Origin: Eledone cirrhosa
Lineage: Eukaryota
Reading direction: 5' to 3'
NCBI GenBank assembly: GCA_964016885.1
Contig: CAXHJY010000065.1
Span: 31,164-95,163 of the forward strand
DNA: 64,000 bases
The position numbers were made by a program, and so were the translations under genes. The stretch's first letter is position 1. Every line of letters starts with the position of its first letter. The notes below the pieces were generated by a model, which saw only the letters and a list, made by a program, of their open reading frames with translations, had not been told where the DNA came from and made no database searches. Below are positions 9,791 through 63,220 of this stretch, one piece after another.

Positions 9791-11899
9791 GATTTCAGGA
9801 AATTGACCATAGTGCTTGGCTCGAAATAGTAATAATACAATTAATGCTGTATATATATGTAGTTTTGGAAGGATATGATGGCAACCATATGTAAGACAAA
9901 TATAAAGTGAAGCATGTATAGTATAGATTCATAAATAAACATTGATTATATAAGTATATGTCCACATCAAAGAGTACCACATGAAATAAAATGGATGGTG
10001 CTCGATAAGTCAATGCATATATCAATGGAATTAAAAGATGCTTACTCTGCCTCAGTGAAAAATTTAGGATTTTTCAAGTACTGTACTTACCAAACAAGTG
10101 TCTTAACTCCAAATTTGAGAGTTTTAGACATCAGTTTGCATCTGAAAAGCCATCTCCTGTCCAACTAGAATCCCATGCTCAAAATGTTCCATCATCTGAA
10201 CGACTAACTGCTTCATGCACTTATTTTCTGTCTCCTATACACATGGAAAAACGCACATATAACAGATCCCTAAGTGCACACACACACAGTTTGGATAGTA
10301 TTAAAAGCACAGATTACGCTTTGCCATTATTTAAATTCACACTAAATATGTTAATACGTAATCATTTATATAATAAATAGGGTGTTGCTACTGCTTCTGC
10401 TACTGCTACATCATCATCATCATCATCATCATCATCATTAACATAAACAGATATATATAGTATCTATTCTTAGTAGATACCGGTATGTTTATAAACATAT
10501 ATTCATACACACAGAAATATACAAATATTCTTACATCAACATACACATACACACATATATTGAATATTTTTACATTATATTTTCTATTGTTTTAGATTTT
10601 CATTGATTGGTAGAAAATATATCACGTCACATAAGAATCAATATTTTCTGAAATTCCTCTATGCTTGCTATTTACGAAAGTGACATTTAAGCTAGAGAAA
10701 TATCTTATGCTACCACCCAGTTCATTGTACTAAACTAAAATACATTGACCATATACTCTGTTTAACACAGAGACAATGGATTCTATTTGACAAGGAGAAA
10801 TAACTACTTTTAAATGTATCTACATATCCCTTTCATAAATCACAGGGAAGATATGTTTGTTTATGATTACATCAGTGTTTGTCTTTTTCTTTTTTCTCTT
10901 TTGAGTTTTAAATTTTATCTCATTTTTCTAAGTACATTTTTAAATTTGGTAGTGGTTCAAGGTTTATATATTGTGATTTTGTTTATAAATTTCAGCTTTG
11001 CATTCTATTTGGAAAGTCATAGATCATACATTTTAGCATCAACATAAATGTATGTTAAAATCATTCATTTGAGGATGAATGATATGAGTTAAAGAGAATT
11101 CTGGAAGAAAAATATCTGAAACTGAACTTAAAATAGAACTAATTATGAAAAGTCAGCTTTGAATTACGGTAGTGGGGGAATTGATTAAATTCAATGTTTT
11201 ACCTTTAAGAAGCTAATGATGGCTAAATAAAAAATTTAGAATAAATAGAATAAAATAGAATAAAATAAAATTCTTATTTAATCTTTGCAATTTACTTTCA
11301 AAGAGAATTTTGTATTTGAAATTACTTCCGCTAGTTGATTTCTTTAAATTTGTTCCCTTATAAATGGTTAAAGCAATTTCTTTTCCTTCATTCTTTTCTT
11401 TGTTGCATACTAGGGGAACTTTAATGTGTAGAATAGAAAGAGCTAGTAAATTTAGGTAATTTATGATTTGGCAACAAATGTATGACATTGCCCTTTACTG
11501 AAAACTTAGGGCAGATTTTTTTTTTCATAAGTAATTTTTATTTTGATTAAGCAATTATTGTGATTATGATGAGGATGAGGCAAAGATCTGGGAGATTACT
11601 TTTAAAGATTGCAGATTTATTACTTCATTAAATATATTTGAATATTGCATTTAATTTTTTAAATATATGTGTATAAATCACTAATGACTAATATGTTGAC
11701 TGATCTTTCACACATGCACACATCTCCTCCAACACCAAAACACCCTGGCAGATATTTGTAGACACTATCATAAACATATGTGCAAAACACACCCCAACAA
11801 GACCTGTGAACAAAACTATTCTCAGAAAACTAAAAAGAACAAACAAAAAAAATCAACAAATTAAAATACTGCCAACAACAACACACTGCTGTACACTGC

Positions 11900-12890: not shown

Positions 12891-13031
12891 ATATATATAC
12901 AAAGGTTATATTTAATTTGTTGGAATTCAACAAACTTAAAAGTTTTTTAACTGATATAAAGCACTCAACAAATTAGTGGAGTAAATATTCAATATATTAA
13001 TAAATGGAAACTATATTTATAAAACCATAAT

Positions 13032-13097
13032 TATTTTATTATATATATTTCAAGGGCAACCAAGGCAAATTTTGGTGTGCTTTCATCAGATAAAATA
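13032..13097 (-). ncRNA. Type I hammerhead ribozyme motif (reverse copy)
   Basis: Exact reverse complement of 13184-13249. Confidence 0.75.
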
Positions 13098-13183
13098 CAA
13101 AATTTGTTTTATAAATGTTGACATACCCGCAAAAGAACAACCTTGATGGTTGGAGGTTCGCTGGATAGTAATAACAAATTTTG

Positions 13184-13249
13184 TATTTTATCTGATGAAA
13201 GCACACCAAAATTTGCCTTGGTTGCCCTTGAAATATATATAATAAAATA
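13184..13249 (+). ncRNA. Type I hammerhead ribozyme motif
   Basis: Stem I tattttat/ataaaata; CTGATGA 13192-13198; stem II aag..accaa/ttggt..ctt; GAAA 13230-13233; palindromic stem III A-tatata-T; predicted cleavage after A13241. Confidence 0.75.
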
Positions 13250-15922: not shown

Positions 15923-16598
15923 CCCTTTATCATTTACATTACCTTTAGCATTTACATTAGGTGAAGGTGCATGGCTTAGTGGTTAAAGCATTGGGCTTGC
16001 AATCAAAAGGTTGTGAGTTCAATTCTCAAACCGGGAGATGTGTTGTTTCCTTGAGCAAGACACTTTATTTTCACATTGCTTCAGTTTACTCAGTTGTATA
16101 AATGAGATGACAGGACTGGGGTCCCTCTCATTCCACTGCAAGGCGATCGTGGAGGTGCCACGGCAAAAAAGCACCCAGCTCACACTGTAAAGTGGACGTG
16201 TAAGCGCTACGGAAAAAAAGCACCCAGCACTTACTGTAAATGAGGTTGGTGTTAGGAAGGGCATCCAGCTGTAGAATTCAAGCCAGAATCAGTTCCTGTA
16301 TGAGCAAGACAAGGTCAGCCGACCAGACACTACCCACAACAGAACAACCCGTCTAACCCATGCTAGCATGGAAGAACGGACGTAAAACGGTGATGATGAT
16401 GATGATGATAATTACTCTATATATACTATTATATTTTCACTGTAAAGTCTTTACCTCACACAATTATTTCATATAATATCGAATCTATGAGATTTTGATA
16501 TTATTTATTTTGAGAGCAATACCATAACATCAATATGAGTGGTCAGTTACAGCCAGTTTGAACAGGAAGAGGACATGGCAAGTTTAAATGCTAAAGGG
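15923..16598. mobile_element. piggyBac-like MITE interrupted by a SINE
   Basis: TTAA-ccctttatcattta ... taaatgctaaaggg; 16420-16598 is a diverged reverse complement of 68-260. Confidence 0.65.
15961..16410 (+). mobile_element. Composite SINE: tRNA head + CORE/Meta-like central domain + RTE-derived tail
   Basis: A box TGGCTTAGTGG; B-box-like GAGTTCAATTC; tccttgagcaagacactt domain; repeated aaaaagcacccagc...actgtaaa; ggtgttaggaagggcatccag box; (GAT)n tail. Confidence 0.8.
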
Positions 16599-47421: not shown

Positions 47422-47775
47422 TTCATATTTCTTCATGTGAACTTCATGTTATAAATTCAGTAAAGAAATATGTAATACTTGTTTGCATCGATTCTCCAGA
47501 ATATTTCACAATATTTATAATTTATAGAAAATACTGCACTATGGTCTGTATCAGTTCCCTATCTACAATATATATTTTTGATTGTCTTTAAAAGTTCTTA
47601 AATTTATACATAGAAATATTTATTATTATCAAATTTATACATAGAAATGCTTATTATTATCAAAATTTATACATAAAAATATTTATCTATTTATTATTAT
47701 CAAAACCATATTTACTATATGGTGCTCTGAAATCTCATAGAAATTTTTACTTATATTATAATTATTATTATATTA

Positions 47776-47890
47776 TAAGGATGAAAGGCAAGGTTGACTT
47801 TGCCTTTCATCCTTACGGGGTTGATAAAATAAAATACCAGTAATGCACTGGGTAATTGCTGGCCTTGTGCCTAAAGTAGAAACAATTATA
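47776..47890 (+). mobile_element. Truncated SINE with 5' foldback
   Basis: taaggatgaaaggcaaggttgactttgcctttcatcctta hairpin followed by the normal SINE 3' part. Confidence 0.8.
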
Positions 47891-48855
47891 TTATAATTAT
47901 AATATAAGTAAAATTATTAGATAAAACAATATATTGTAAAATTATTAAATAAAACAATATATTTTAAAATAATATACTTTCCTTAAATTACTAAACACCA
48001 CAGTTATCTTCCCCTTAAAAATGTTAGTTAACAATTCACATATACAATACATTCAAATTTACATAAATGTTTAAATTTATATCACTAACCTTATACAATA
48101 ATAGATTATGCCTAATACTATACATCTTTACTTTAAAAAAATATAATTACTTTCACATTTTTAAAGTATATATAAAAAATGCATATATATTATCGCTTGA
48201 TATATCTTACGTCTATATATATATATATATATCTTACGCTCATTTATAATTCTATGTCTATATATACACTTAAATAAGATCTATATTCACGCATAATCAT
48301 TTATGTTCCAAATAATTTTTTTTAATAACAATATTCAATAATGTCTTATACTGTAATACATTATATTTATAACTGCACTCATCAAAAAATATATCCCCTC
48401 GTATATCTAAATACAGGTTATCTTTCACATATTATATTGTTGTAATTGCTTTAATAAATTAATAGTTCTCAATTTAATACAATACAATAAAATTCTCACT
48501 AAATATTATAAATACTTCCATATTCTTAAAATATAATAACAAAATAAATAAATAAATAAATATAATTATATCATTCTTTCTATACCCATGTAAATATGTT
48601 TGGGTGTATATATGCATATTTCTATAAATAATACTAAAATAACTTTACAATATATACTTTTTTAAAAATTTAATTGCAAACCCTTTAAAATTTTTTAGAT
48701 AAATGTTTAAAATCTATCTAGCATCTAAACTTAACGGACTTTTTCAGTTTTAACGTTATCCTCAATAGCATATTTCCCCTTTTGAACAATTATATTCACT
48801 ATCTTCACTGAATTTATAACATGAAGATATGTCACTATCTTTACGCCAATTATTA

Positions 48856-48916
48856 TATTTTATCTGACGAAAGCATACTAAAATATTAGTACACTTGAAA
48901 TACGTATAATAAAATA
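48856..48916 (+). ncRNA. Type I hammerhead ribozyme motif
   Basis: tattttat CTGACGA aag ca tactaa aata ttagta ca ctt GAAA tacgta T A ataaaata; predicted cleavage after A48908. Confidence 0.8.
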
Positions 48917-48957
48917 AAACTGGTTTTATAAAAATATTTTCCATTTATTAATACTAT

Positions 48958-49008
<51 letters not shown>

Positions 49009-49317: not shown

Positions 49318-49358
49318 TTTCTCCTGATGAAGGGCTTATGCCCGAAACGTCGTCCTCC
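49318..49358 (+). ncRNA. Minimal Penelope-type hammerhead-like motif (stem I degraded)
   Basis: CTGATGA a gggc ttat gccc GAAAcgTC; palindromic ACGT stem III; only 1 bp of stem I. Confidence 0.55.
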
Positions 49359-52123: not shown

Positions 52124-52378
52124 TGTGGGTATGGTGTGGCGTGCGGTGGCTGGAGGCGGGGGAGTGCTCGACCGGAAGGGTGCTTGGCCGGAAGGATGCT
52201 CGACCGGGAGGGCCAGCAGAGGGCCTCTCTCTAGTGGTGACCAGCAAACGGTGTGGACGCGAGTTTTGGGCAGCTCCCGGTGTTAAGCAGTTGGACGCAC
52301 GTGGAAGAGGAGTAACTTGTAGTGGAGTTTAGCGGCGCCTATGAAAAGCGGTAAGTGAGATAGCTTTTTCTAACCACA
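52124..52378 (+). repeat. 5' LTR (255 bp)
   Basis: Matches 56021-56258 except one extra 16-bp unit, a 1-bp indel and about 6 substitutions. Confidence 0.95.
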
Positions 52379-52457
52379 AGCTATTTCGGCGACTGGAAAA
52401 AAAACAAAAAAAAAAACACTTGCCGCAAGACAAATCAGAAGATGGCAACAAGACCGG

Positions 52458-53201
52458 ATGAACGAAGCTATCAGGGCATTTACCGGAGAAGGTGGTGTTG
52501 TCGCTTGGCTGCGGAAGGTTCGGTTGGTCGCAAGCTTGCAGAAGATAGAGGACGTGGCCGGCCTCATGGCACTGTACCTCGAGGGCGACACGTTGGTACT
52601 CTTCCTTGAGTTGGAAGAGCACAGTCAAAGAGATGCGCAGAAGATTGAGAGGCGTCTGATGGATGTATTCGGCGAGGGACCGTTGGCGGCTTTTGCTTAG
52701 CTGGAGAGAATCAGGTGGAATGGTGAGCGCGTCGACATTTTCGCAGTGGAAATACGGCGGTTGGCCATGTTGGCCGGTTACCAGGTGGAATGCGAACGCA
52801 CGGTGTGGTTGGCGTTCATCAATGGATTTCCGGACGACATAGCGGTGAAACTGCAGCAAGTCCCGGGTTATAAAGAGATGGAAATGCGTTCACTGGTGGA
52901 ACAAGCCCGGATCATAGCGGAGGATGCCAAAAAGAGTGTTGCGGCGATAGCAACTACGGAGGCTCAGGACACCTGGCAGCGAAATGGTGAAAGGGAGGCA
53001 ACCCCGGCACGCGGTCGCCCGCGAACGCTTAGAGGGCGCTGTTTGCGGTGCCAGGGCCCGCACATGGCTAGAGACTGTAGAGAGCCGAAGCCGGAGATAA
53101 TTTGCTACCGGTGTAAGCGACTAGGCCACATCGCTACTAACTGCGACCAGGTAAACGATCCAAGGGGAACTACTGCGCCGGTAGTTTCCCCTTACGAGTA
53201 G
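52458..53201 (+). pseudogene. gag: Gypsy Gag with two CCHC-type knuckles; one in-frame stop at ~52698
   Basis: ORFs 52458-52700 and 52746-53201 are in the same frame; CLRCQGPHMARDC and CYRCKRLGHIATNC. Confidence 0.9.
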
Positions 53202-56007
53202 CGGCGCTGCCCGTGGTGGAAGTCTTCGTGAGGGGGAAGCCACAGCAAGCCCTCGTGGATACGGGCTGTACGACGACACTGGTGACTGCGGGGGTGGCGC
53301 AGAGGTGGGGAGGGAAGAGCAGCGTAAGGGCAGTCGACGGCAGGAAAATTGAATGCCGAGGTCGCAGCGAGATGGAAATAGCGGTAAGGGGAAGGAGGAT
53401 AAGGCTTTCCGCCATTGTGGTAGACAGTGTGGTGGATGGGATCGGCGTGGTTATGGGCATGGACGCGATTGGCCGTCTAGGGGGCGTCACGGTGAACAAT
53501 GTCGGTGTGTCGTTTGGCGCCGCTGCATCGGTATGCGCTGTGAGTGCACGTCATGAGAACCAGAAGGCCCACGAGGAGGAATACCCCGCTTACACTGTGC
53601 AGGACAAAGAATTCAAGGCCGTGTTTGATGGGAAGCGATGGGTTGTTGAGTGGTACTGGAAGGGAGAACCACCAACACTGAAGACCAAAGTGGGCTGCTA
53701 TCAACGCACATTGAAGGGAAACGCTAGGAGCGAGTTGGAGCGAGAAGTAGAGAGATGGATCGAAGAGGGCATACTGCTTCCCTGGAAGGAGGAGGTGAAG
53801 TGCGGAGTATTGCCGTTAATGGCGGTGGTGCAACCCACGAAGTGCAAGGTGAGGCCGGTGCTGGACTATCGGGAGCTGAACGAGCACGTGTCATGCCACA
53901 CGGGTGGCGAGGTCACGGATGTCTGTAGGGAAACCCTGCATGAGTGGAGACGCATGGGGGATCTAAAGTCGGCTTACTTGCAGTTGCATATAGATGAGAA
54001 GCTCTGGCGGTATCAGCTGGTCAGGTATAAGGGCCGGACATATTGCCTGACCAGGCTTGGTTTCGGGCTGAAGTCCGCACCGAAGATCATGGCGGCGGTC
54101 CTCAAGACCGCTCTGGGGAGGGCCGACAATGTAAAGAGGGCTACTCTCTCCTATATTGACGACATCCTAGTGGACGAGTCGGTGGTGTCGCGGCGGAGGT
54201 CACGAGCCATTTACGGAGGTATGGACTGACTGCGAAGCCATCAGAAGCATTGGAGGGAGGAGCCGCGCTGGGACTTAGGCTACGGCGAGACAGGACGGGC
54301 GTTTTGGTATTCCAGAGGGGAAACGAAGTTCCGGAACTGGGCCCAAGTATGAGTAGGCGGGAGCTTTTCTCGGTGTGTGGAAAGCTGGTGGGTCACTACC
54401 CGATCGCTGGGTGGCTCCGGACAGCATGCAGCTATGTCAAGAGACGAGCGGGAGGGGTGACTTGGAGTGACAGAGTGGGAGAGAGGACGGTGGCCATGAT
54501 GCAGGAGATCATGGGGAGGGTGAAGGCCGACGACCCAGTGCGGGGACGCTGGTATGTTCCCAAATCACAGAGCGGGACCGTATGGTGCGATGCCAGCAGC
54601 ATAGCGCTGGGTGTCACGTTGGAGATAGGAGGTGTTGAGGTCGAGGATGCAGCCTGGCTTAGAAAGAAGGACGACTGCAACCACATCAATGTGGCCGAGC
54701 TGGACGCGGTGTTGAGAGGGGTGAACCTCGCCCTGCGGTGGGGGCTGCGCACCATCGAGATACGCACTGACTCGGCTACTGTACTCGGATGGGTAAGATC
54801 AGTGCTCACCAGTGAGAAGAGAGTGCGAACGAGAGGCGCGGCGGAGATGCTGATAAAGCGCCGCCTGGGAACGTTAAGAGAGCTGGCCACCGAGTTCGAC
54901 CTGAAGCTGAGCGTAGTTTTCGTGCCCTCAGAGAAAAATAGGGCGGACATCTTAACTAGAGTGAAGAAAGCCTGGATGGAAGCGCCGGAGGAGGTAGAGG
55001 ATGAGATAGCTGCCGTGTGTCGGCTGACCGAGTCAGATCTGAAGGGGTTGCATGACATGCACCACATGGGGGTGGATAGGAGCCTGTTCCTAGCCAGGAG
55101 AATCGACTCGGACGTTAGCAGACACAGTGTTCGGCGGGTGGTTAGAGGCTGCGTCCGATGTCAGTCCATTGATCCCGCCCGGGGTGTACACGAAACGGGA
55201 AGCCTCCCGGTGGATCGCGACTGGAAGCGATTAGCGGTGGATGTGACGCACTACCGGCAGGGAACGTACCTCTCGATGGTCGACTGTGGACCAGGTCGAA
55301 TGGCGATATGGAGGGAGATGAGGACTGGAACGGCCGAGGAAATCGTGCGGACGTTGAGAGAGGTGTTCTTGGAGCGGGGCCCTGTGGACGAACTGCTGAT
55401 GGTCAACAGCGCAGCGTTCCGCTGGGAGGCACTCTGGGAGATGTTCGATGGATAGAAGGTGGACCGTTTCTTCAGAGCGGCGCACAGGCCGAGCGGCAAT
55501 GGAATCGTGGAGCGACACCACCGGACGATCAAGGCAATGGCGGAGCGGGGCCATATCTCACCAATGGAGGCAGTGTTCTGGTACAATATGTCCCCTCGGG
55601 TTGGACAGGTCGAGGAATCGGTGCCACACAGAGCAGTATTCAAATACGAGTGGCGGCACCCGTGCACGCCACCACAACGGCCAGTGGGAAGAGAGAGTGC
55701 ATTTGTGCAGGTGGGCGAAGAAGTCTGGGTTAAGCCCCCAGATGCACGTTGCACATCTCAATGGGGAAGGTTAACGGTGACGGCCGTAAATTCAAAGGAC
55801 AATGTGTCCGTGGACGGGGTACCACGTCATGTCCTGGATGTAAGAAGAATCACTGTGTCGACGGACTCCGAGGAAGAGGAAACCCAAGATGAGGTGGAAA
55901 CCCAGAGCTCTGCCCCAATACTTCGGAGATCGCAACGAAGTCGTAGACCACCAACCTGGACAGCAGACTTTCATATGCAGAGGGACGAGGGGCAAATTGA
56001 TCCTTGA
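53153..56007 (+). pseudogene. pol: Gypsy Pol (protease, RT, RNase H, integrase) with a frameshift and a stop
   Basis: ALVDTGCT; DLKSAYLQ and YIDDIL; WCDASS and INVAELDA; HDMHHMG...CVRC, LAVDV and GIVERHHRTIK. Confidence 0.92.
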
Positions 56008-60020: not shown

Positions 60021-60923
60021 GATATACAGGGGGAGCATAAAGTCTTTGAAACTACATAACACACAGAGCGTTTTGTTTCATAGATGCTATTTTATTACTG
60101 AAAATTTCAACTACCTGTTGAACAGAAAATGTAAATCATGTTGAGAAAAAATTTTAATTCATAATTTAAAACAATGAAAAAGTAAAATCTCAAATAGTAT
60201 CTGAGATATGGTATTTTATAATCAAGGAAACACTTAATGCTCACTCTGTTTATATTATGTGTGTGTGTGTAAATACCTCTATGTGTATTAGTGTTTGTAC
60301 TGATATATTATTTCTAATATCTCTCTCTAAAATGATCACATACATAATACATATTTCGAGCATGAAACAATTATAAATAAGCATTTTCTCTGATTTGATA
60401 TATTTATTACACCTCAGTGAGATTAGCTTAAGTAAAATGGCAGCTACATATAATAATTCTCTCATGAATTTCTAATCAATCATAATTTTACTTTCAATTT
60501 AAATAAATATATATTCCAGCACATTTTCTATCTTATTTCACTTTTTTGTCATCATATTGTATTTGCCTTTCTAATATATAGTATCTGTGTGAGAGAGAGA
60601 GAGAATGGGAAGTCAGATTTGCGACTTGTTATGAAACTCCATTGCATATTACAACAGTTTCGATATCGATCAGCTCAGGTTTGAACAAGTGATCAGATCC
60701 CGACTTTTAATCGACACGCCTTCAGATTGAGAGTTTATATAGGTGGTCCCATCCAAATCTGACTTTCTGTTGTCACTCTACAAACTACAGCTGCCTTAAA
60801 CCTAGAGCACAACCCAATGAGAGACAGACCCCGTGTAACAGAATCAAATGTTTCAACCAGCGTTGCTGCTCACCACAAATTATTCACGTAATAACATATA
60901 TATATATATATTTTGCCCTCTGT

Positions 60924-61337
60924 TTGGATAGAAATTTGGTGTATAAATGCACCGTAAAAACAAATAACAACACATACAACTACATAGGAGCAACTTCTTC
61001 AACATTTAAAGCAAAATTTGCGAATCACAAATGCTCATTCTCGAATTCTAATAGGAAGTCTTCGACTTCTTTATCACAGCTTATATGGTCATTAAAAGAC
61101 AAAAATTTAAAATACTCGATCTTTTGGATGAAGCTTTGTAATAGTGGAGTTTATGTCAACTCTTGTATATCAATTAACTGCAGCCTCTGTACAAAGGAGA
61201 CCCTATTAATAATTAATAGTTATGAAAACTTAATTAACAAAAAAAGTGAATTATTCTCAAACTGCCTTCATAAAGCTTTGTCTACATTCCAAGCCCCGCA
61301 AAAAGTCAAGACAAAAACAGTAAGCAATCAAGCATGA
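60924..61337 (+). pseudogene. GIY-YIG endonuclease domain of a Penelope-like element
   Basis: NLVYKC...YIGAT..TFKAKFANHK.SF....STSLSQLIW.LKD...CSLCTKE....LINKKSELFSNCLH. Confidence 0.85.
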
Positions 61338-62975: not shown

Positions 62976-63042
62976 TATTTTATCTGATGAGGACGTACTG
63001 TTGAACTTAATTCAGTACCTCTGAAATATGTATAATAAAATA
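62976..63042 (+). ncRNA. Type I hammerhead ribozyme motif
   Basis: tattttat CTGATGA gga c gtactg [12 nt] cagtac c tct GAAA tatgta T A ataaaata; predicted cleavage after A63034. Confidence 0.75.
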
Positions 63043-63180
63043 TATATATTGACCACGAGAATATCTATTTTGTTAATATTTTGAATTAATATTAATAACT
63101 CCGGAAAATATTTTTTGTAGAGTACTTCCAATCTATTGTAAAACTCATTCTTTGATGTATTCATTGAATCTTGTTTAACT

Positions 63181-63220
<40 letters not shown>

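Follow-up and report, generated by a model that had tools for sequence, protein, structure and literature searches.

Predicted type I hammerhead motifs in the pseudo-LTRs of Hydra-like Penelope-like elements of Eledone cirrhosa

Several copies of a short, AU-rich motif are scattered over a stretch of Eledone cirrhosa DNA (64,000 nucleotides, hereafter the window), and the question they raise is whether they are hammerhead ribozymes and, if so, what kind of element distributed them. The first-pass annotation had read them as type I hammerheads at the ends of Penelope-like elements (PLEs), with a stem II that changes in sequence and still pairs.

Hammerhead copies in the window

The exact 15-nt pattern TATTTTATCTGANGA was found in the 64-kb window at 13184(+), 13097(-), 48856(+) and 62976(+), where the annotation had placed its four copies. 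With up to two mismatches, 8 window matches were obtained against a shuffle mean of 1.97, and 8 or more were reached in 0 of 100 shuffles. A covariance model with 12 rows, three of them window copies, gave four strong window matches, which were the same four copies, and the next match had an E value of 0.077. The core, the 8-bp stem I, the stem II with 3 bp, a mismatch and a distal part, and the stem III 8-mers were all present at the window copies as described. Rfam scanning of the window yielded 66 matches at E<=5 with no hammerhead family among them, which agrees with the warning that standard searches may miss the motif. The features are as follows:

48856..48916, plus strand: type I hammerhead motif, subfamily E, predicted cut at 48908/9, two decayed stem II positions
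48856-63 / 48909-16, plus strand: stem I of the 48856 copy (motif parse, as for the next four lines)
48864-70, plus strand: core of the 48856 copy
48871-96, plus strand: stem II of the 48856 copy
48897-99, plus strand: GAA of the 48856 copy
48900-07, plus strand: palindromic stem III of the 48856 copy
47462..48960, plus strand: 5'-truncated Penelope-like insertion around the 48856 motif (blastn against relatives L107, L114 and L101)
13184..13249, plus strand: subfamily D hammerhead motif in the forward arm of an insertion arranged head to head, with the short (+50) end
13032..13097, minus strand: the identical motif in the inverted arm, with a long (+140) end that extends to about 12900
62976..63042, plus strand: hammerhead motif, subfamily B, long (+147) end meeting (TA)n near 63185
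60921..61337, plus strand: remnant of a GIY-YIG endonuclease 1.6 kb upstream of the 62976 motif, with which it shares one 5'-truncated element
63085..63182, plus strand: tail that separates the short end from the long end, two small hairpins predicted in it (4-sequence consensus fold)

The insertion around the 48856 motif contains the final codons of the endonuclease ORF, a 3' UTR of about 1.4 kb and a short (+50) end abutting (TA)n, and its match to the three relatives, which bear a GIY-YIG remnant, has a gap at 47781-47943. C-C is usual at the stem II mismatch (24 of 26 subfamily relatives) and G-C at the pair after it (20 of 26), but the 48856 copy has C-A and A-C there; we regard both changes as decay of an insertion that is also 5'-truncated. 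The two motifs near 13 kb are arms of a 127-nt inverted repeat that is 98% complementary. The endonuclease remnant upstream of the 62976 motif matched the ORF of locus L095 (tblastn E 6e-24), and the element was 89% identical over 2,320 nt to L032, whose layout is the same. The predicted hairpins of its tail showed weak covariation (2/12 pairs).

The window also contains other features. A second, unrelated minimal hammerhead-like motif is found at 49324-49353(+), about 400 nt downstream of the 48856 copy; it has the core, an extra A, a 4-bp GC stem II and GAAACGUC, its exact 27-mer has 385 genomic matches, and, oddly, just one stem I pair is evident, in the window as well as in 4 copies that were fetched. 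A CACTAT-like word stands 75-85 nt upstream of the hammerhead motif in several clusters, e.g. at 13157-13168(-) and 48796-48808, and several truncated copies start near it, so it may be a transcription start or a truncation hot spot. The frame at 10009-10380(+) has a terminal CxxC-type motif resembling a PLE endonuclease tail; tblastn against two Hydra-type ORFs gave no match for it at E<1e-4, and no hammerhead was found after the frame. A long GC-rich inverted repeat at 2860-2972 is part of a repeat found again next to (TA)n in several of the fetched loci, a tRNA model matched 15972-16029(+) with 33.2 bits (gathering threshold 29), probably as the head of a tRNA-derived SINE, and GC-rich gag-pol frames resembling those of an LTR retrotransposon occupy 52300-56000(+). 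LINE fragments are numerous elsewhere in the window.

The retroelement that carries the motif

The DNA upstream of one fetched copy (L013) led to a C-terminal GIY-YIG ORF, and the frame was in one piece in 29 of the 30 loci fetched with this ORF. In one cluster the motif lay 677-1,092 nt past the stop of this ORF in 25 of 29 loci, and in the subfamily of the 48856 copy, 8 of 29 loci had an upstream endonuclease remnant on the strand of the motif. Many frames of about 745 codons are open in a second element family. In 8 of 10 long regions the motif was downstream of the ORF, and in four loci (L091, L093, L095 and L096) it was present at both ends of the element in direct orientation; in L095 the unit measures 3,757 nt, and a partial tandem is present as well. 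Subfamily D, to which the 13184 copy belongs, shares its flanks and tail with the ORF-linked clusters. Open frames of 737-818 aa combine RT and GIY-YIG in a single ORF with RDD and YxGxT/R/H motifs, and direct and inverted pseudo-LTRs (pLTRs), partial tandems, 5' truncation and a one-sided tail are all present, as in EN+ PLEs. This architecture was observed directly: the hammerhead motif sits in the pLTRs of retroelements with RT plus a GIY-YIG endonuclease at the C terminus. The proposed identity as PLE ends was thus borne out by the upstream ORF and by full-length RT-EN elements with the motif at both ends, and the suggestion of at least three subfamilies was exceeded, since at least nine clusters were found.

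The two ORFs of different families are 47% identical, both have the endonuclease at the C terminus, both contain DKT, CxCX5C, CxxC and CxH, and the position of the Hydra-clade RWK is occupied by RWR in one and RWI in the other. Atlas neighbours had GIY-YIG and RVT_1 on a minority of members; Pfam gave no match on the element ORF and nothing informative on two window fragments. Judging from these motifs and from comparison by eye with printed reference proteins, the elements appear to match the Hydra clade. As in Hydra-clade PLEs (Craig et al. 2021, PMC8557442), the type I motif is near the 3' end, the GIY-YIG domain is C-terminal, the same DKT and cysteine motifs occur, the targets are (TA)n, and a one-sided tail is also noted there. 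The unit of L095 is longer than in the Hydra clade, where lengths are generally below 3 kb (a typical rather than a strict value), and the tail is about 90 nt here, compared with 30-40 bp given for other PLEs (PMC8557442). One octopus family, Hydra-1_Obim, is among the tabulated Hydra-clade hammerheads, and its motif differs in sequence from the Eledone cirrhosa group (PMC8557442).

Two other classes of element were considered and rejected. Naiad elements have an N-terminal endonuclease and no canonical hammerhead, and the endonuclease is C-terminal here. Metazoan non-LTR retrozymes resemble the present group in their very high number of type I hammerheads, of which the amphibian ones are dimer-dependent, but they are non-coding tandem units of 170-400 nt (PMC7229834), whereas the motif here is tied to the dispersed ends of a coding 3.7-kb unit.

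Some single loci had features of their own. L096 (G000:C4:320955000-320964000) contains a head-to-head pair of complete elements, and each of them has its two pLTR hammerheads. In the 5' UTR of L091 a TCCTTAAC word (1895-1910) stands shortly before an AG, which we take to resemble a minor-intron branch site; it was not seen in the other family examined.

Abundance, structure and covariation of the motif

The strict pattern had 37,536 matches in the 3.0-Gb genome and its control had 0. The relaxed pattern CTGANGAN{12,40}GAAATRYRYATAR had 105,263 (53,347 forward and 51,916 reverse) against 33 for the reversed control, and because the forward count can list overlapping starts, a fair count is about 104,000-105,000, or about 35 copies per Mb. 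The group with a GC-containing stem I (ACUGC/GCAGU) had 11,997 genome matches. The axolotl genome is about ten times the size of this genome. For axolotl, 126,247 type I hammerhead motifs were reported (PMC7229834), and up to about 9,000 PLE hammerheads per genome were given in PMC4209133. Additional stem II types were seen outside the clusters described below (G000:C1:1683346-1683396, C1:2280349-2280393 and C1:70023440-70023483); they likewise have C at position 4, and the number of families is probably higher than nine.

From the fetched loci, 159 distinct motif strings were collected, and the 139 that retained at least 4 of the 5 core-proximal stem I pairs formed 12 clusters, 9 of them with two or more members. 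Stem II positions 1-3, 6 and 7 were paired in all nine, position 7 being A-U throughout, and position 4 was unpaired in all nine (C-C in 8, C-U in 1). The annotation had described a mismatch after the third pair, and this holds with the refinement that most copies have C-C. Over the nine cluster medoids 44 of 45 stem II cells were paired against a shuffle mean of 33.3, and covariation was seen in stem I as well as in stem II. In the 12-row alignment both sides had changed in 12 of 18 pairs and 94.9% of cells were paired; the observed pairing was reached in 0 of 500 shuffles, and slid controls were 31-57% paired. These shuffle counts are not probabilities, because the clusters are related. The flanking DNA is about 75-80% AT and TA repeats can pair with themselves, which could favor chance pairing in repeat DNA with no ribozyme ancestry. 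This explanation is scarcely credible, since reversed-pattern controls gave 0-33 matches against tens of thousands, the motif has a fixed position within the pLTR, and the compensatory changes, which include GC-rich stems, contradict chance.

The core CUGANGA, GAAA and the NUH junction of a type I hammerhead were kept. Among 121 copies, gathered with no constraint on stem III beyond its first A, the cleavage triplet was AUA in 119, position 17 was A in 120, and the stem III 8-mer was self-complementary in 113, with centres ATAT, GCGC, ACGT and ATGT. The basal stem II pair (the G10.1-C11.1 position) was G-C in two of the nine clusters, A-U in five and G-U in two. The annotation had regarded AUA and the non-G-C base of stem II as atypical; both are present here, and both have precedent (PMC1636495, PMC8557442). 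AUA occurs in the natural viroid and satellite hammerheads of ELVd, sCYDV-RPV and csc RNA (PMC1636495), and the basal G-C is often missing from the Hydra-clade hammerheads listed in file S2 of PMC8557442. The all-AU stem I described by the annotation applies to the window copies and not to the whole group, as related clusters have ACUGC/GCAGU.

Compared with published motifs, the group resembles Hydra-clade hammerheads in its near-palindromic stem III (8-10 nt there), in the frequent A at the cut and in the frequent lack of G-C at the base of stem II (PMC8557442), and it resembles the PLE hammerheads of Cervera and de la Pena 2014 (PMC4209133) in its pLTR location, long helix II and palindromic helix III. 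In all Hydra rows of file S2, stem III ends in GU before the cut base, whereas AUA is found here, and none of those rows has the stem II with 3 bp followed by a C-C or C-U mismatch (PMC8557442). Drosophila rows in PMC4209133 appear to have A at 16.2, and D. willistoni appears to have AUA together with a basal A-U, a tentative comparison as the columns there are displaced. No cephalopod row was seen in PMC4209133, where "octopus" had 0 matches in the two supplement files searched. The traits that distinguish the group are the AUA triplet, the C-C/C-U mismatch in stem II and the stem III palindrome with a covarying centre. We found no account of an AUA, mismatch-bearing group or of this copy number in the open-access literature; Lunse et al. 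2016, on PLE hammerhead dimers, may cover the variant.

Several properties would argue against ready cleavage. AUA was the slowest of four triplets post-transcriptionally in purified ELVd hammerheads, and it was the second fastest during transcription (PMC1636495). Beside this, a G-C base of stem II is scarce, Rfam gave no match, and the predicted folds are weak: the minimum-energy fold of several copies was not the hammerhead, and the AU-rich stem I was sparsely populated in several clusters (mean pair probability 0.06-0.88). In a monomer, stem III would have 2-3 bp with a predicted closing cost of about 3 kcal/mol, whereas the 8-bp self-duplex in trans was predicted at -2.2 to -10.5 kcal/mol. 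The palindrome fits the pairing of two copies, because its centre covaries although it cannot pair within one molecule, where it would be a loop. This covariation, the unfavorable monomeric stem III and the inactivity of related PLE motifs as monomers (PMC4209133) make it very unlikely that the motif is an efficient monomeric hammerhead, in which the stem II mismatch would contact an extended stem I and so offset the weak stem III. Such a monomer would be consistent with the 2-3 stem III pairs possible in cis, with a stem I that in clusters C and E can be extended beyond an internal loop, with the invariant mismatch, and with the natural AUA hammerhead of sCYDV-RPV, whose helix II is long and interrupted (PMC1636495).

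An upstream GGTATGTC-like motif was considered in two roles. A role as an anti-hammerhead switch, in which it would pair with stem II's 5' strand, is not supported: 95% of shuffles were beaten in just 4 of 13 representatives, and pairing within its own family (-8.7) was barely better than across families (-7.4). A possible role as a splice donor was set aside, since clusters A and G lack the motif and cluster E has an altered form.

Element ends and a model of insertion

Two end points recur, about 50 and about 140 nt beyond the predicted cut, with just 2 of 184 copies ending between 71 and 110 nt. Most of the 184 meet a microsatellite within 180 nt, compared with 19% of random window positions, in a test that counted TG and CAT repeats besides (TA)n. 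The annotation had noted (TA)n after each window copy, and all four indeed run into it, about 50 nt past the cut for 48856 and 13184 and 140-150 nt for 62976 and 13097. The sequence of the long end is 5'-UTR, with the ATG of L095 about 190 nt past the cut. Among 36 inverted pairs, 30 could be classified, and 27 of these had one short and one long end, 2 were both short and 1 was both long (p about 4e-6 against independence, for loci that are not a random sample). Opposite-orientation copies, there 100-700 bp apart, are also described for PLE hammerheads in PMC4209133, which likewise proposes dimer action. An ACTC...GAGT hairpin in the tail was kept in all clusters viewed (L095:2262-2356, window 63092-63182 and 12892-12990(-)), and it is a candidate signal for the reverse transcriptase.

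The 5' junctions of cluster A with (TA)n were spread over about 30 positions, and no pile-up occurred at the cut (read by eye, about 3 of the 52 loci listed lay no more than 3 nt from it). Cleaved linear RNA as the main template was therefore rejected. Contigs of two runs contained no joint across the motif; such contigs cannot show RNA ends.

The Poseidon PLE of Anolis offers a mechanistic comparison. In vitro, two internal RT start sites bound its tail, both target strands are extended, and the hammerhead is upstream of the start sites (PMC11167929), as would be the case here. Poseidon belongs to a different clade and has a minimal hammerhead that overlaps the ORF start, while in the Eledone cirrhosa elements the ATG is past the cut and the tail is longer. 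Its insertion in vitro was not lowered by core mutants, and RNA-seq gave no reads with an end at the cut (PMC11167929). The role of the hammerhead in PLEs is described as unclear in both PMC8557442 and PMC11167929.

Taken at its probable value, the pLTR motif of these (TA)n-targeting Hydra-like PLE families is a predicted type I hammerhead that is likely weak and likely needs two copies paired through stem III. We infer that hammerhead cleavage, dimer action and circularisation would proceed as follows. The element protein may nick (TA)n on both strands and start reverse transcription from two fixed positions inside the element, some 50 and 140 nt beyond the cut, as two-site priming was shown in vitro for Poseidon (PMC11167929). 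Reverse transcription would pass through the intact hammerhead and usually halt early, so that truncated 3' ends would make up most of the roughly 100,000 copies, among them the four in the window. The ribozyme would likely trim or free the unit RNA from read-through or tandem transcripts, in which the two pLTR copies could exchange stem III strands, and the template for copying would be RNA that is uncleaved or re-ligated. Against this reading, the majority of genomic copies stand alone or inverted and could not dimerise in cis.

It is unlikely, though consistent with part of the data, that the fold is kept chiefly as a protein-binding or packaging element with negligible cleavage in vivo. 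The unpaired C at stem II position 4 and the A-U at position 7 are invariant far from the catalytic core, the cut has no 5' junction pile-up, the intact motif was copied through in all insertions, and Poseidon inserts in vitro without cleavage (PMC11167929). Against it, all catalytic core bases and the NUH site were kept although the proteins are just 47% identical, and the near-constant A at position 17 was kept as well. A related and quite unlikely reading takes the palindromic stem III as an RNA dimerisation signal, which would hold two templates, or two laps of a circular RNA produced by the ribozyme, in one RT-endonuclease dimer with the strands primed at +50 and +140, the stem II mismatch being a protein contact. 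It would account for the 27 of 30 head-to-head insertions with a short and a long end and for both arms of L096 exceeding the unit length, and, if true, would make PLE hammerheads packaging switches and not just cutters.

With the weak, pair-dependent hammerhead as the preferred reading, the group is a very abundant variant of a known pairing of ribozyme and retroelement and no new kind of either. It also means that a very large hammerhead class has been overlooked by the Rfam models. The density of copies, the nine or more diverged clusters and the many young elements with open ORFs make a large natural data set, which suits the study of the dimer model, of the meaning of the invariant stem II mismatch and of the mechanism with two start sites.
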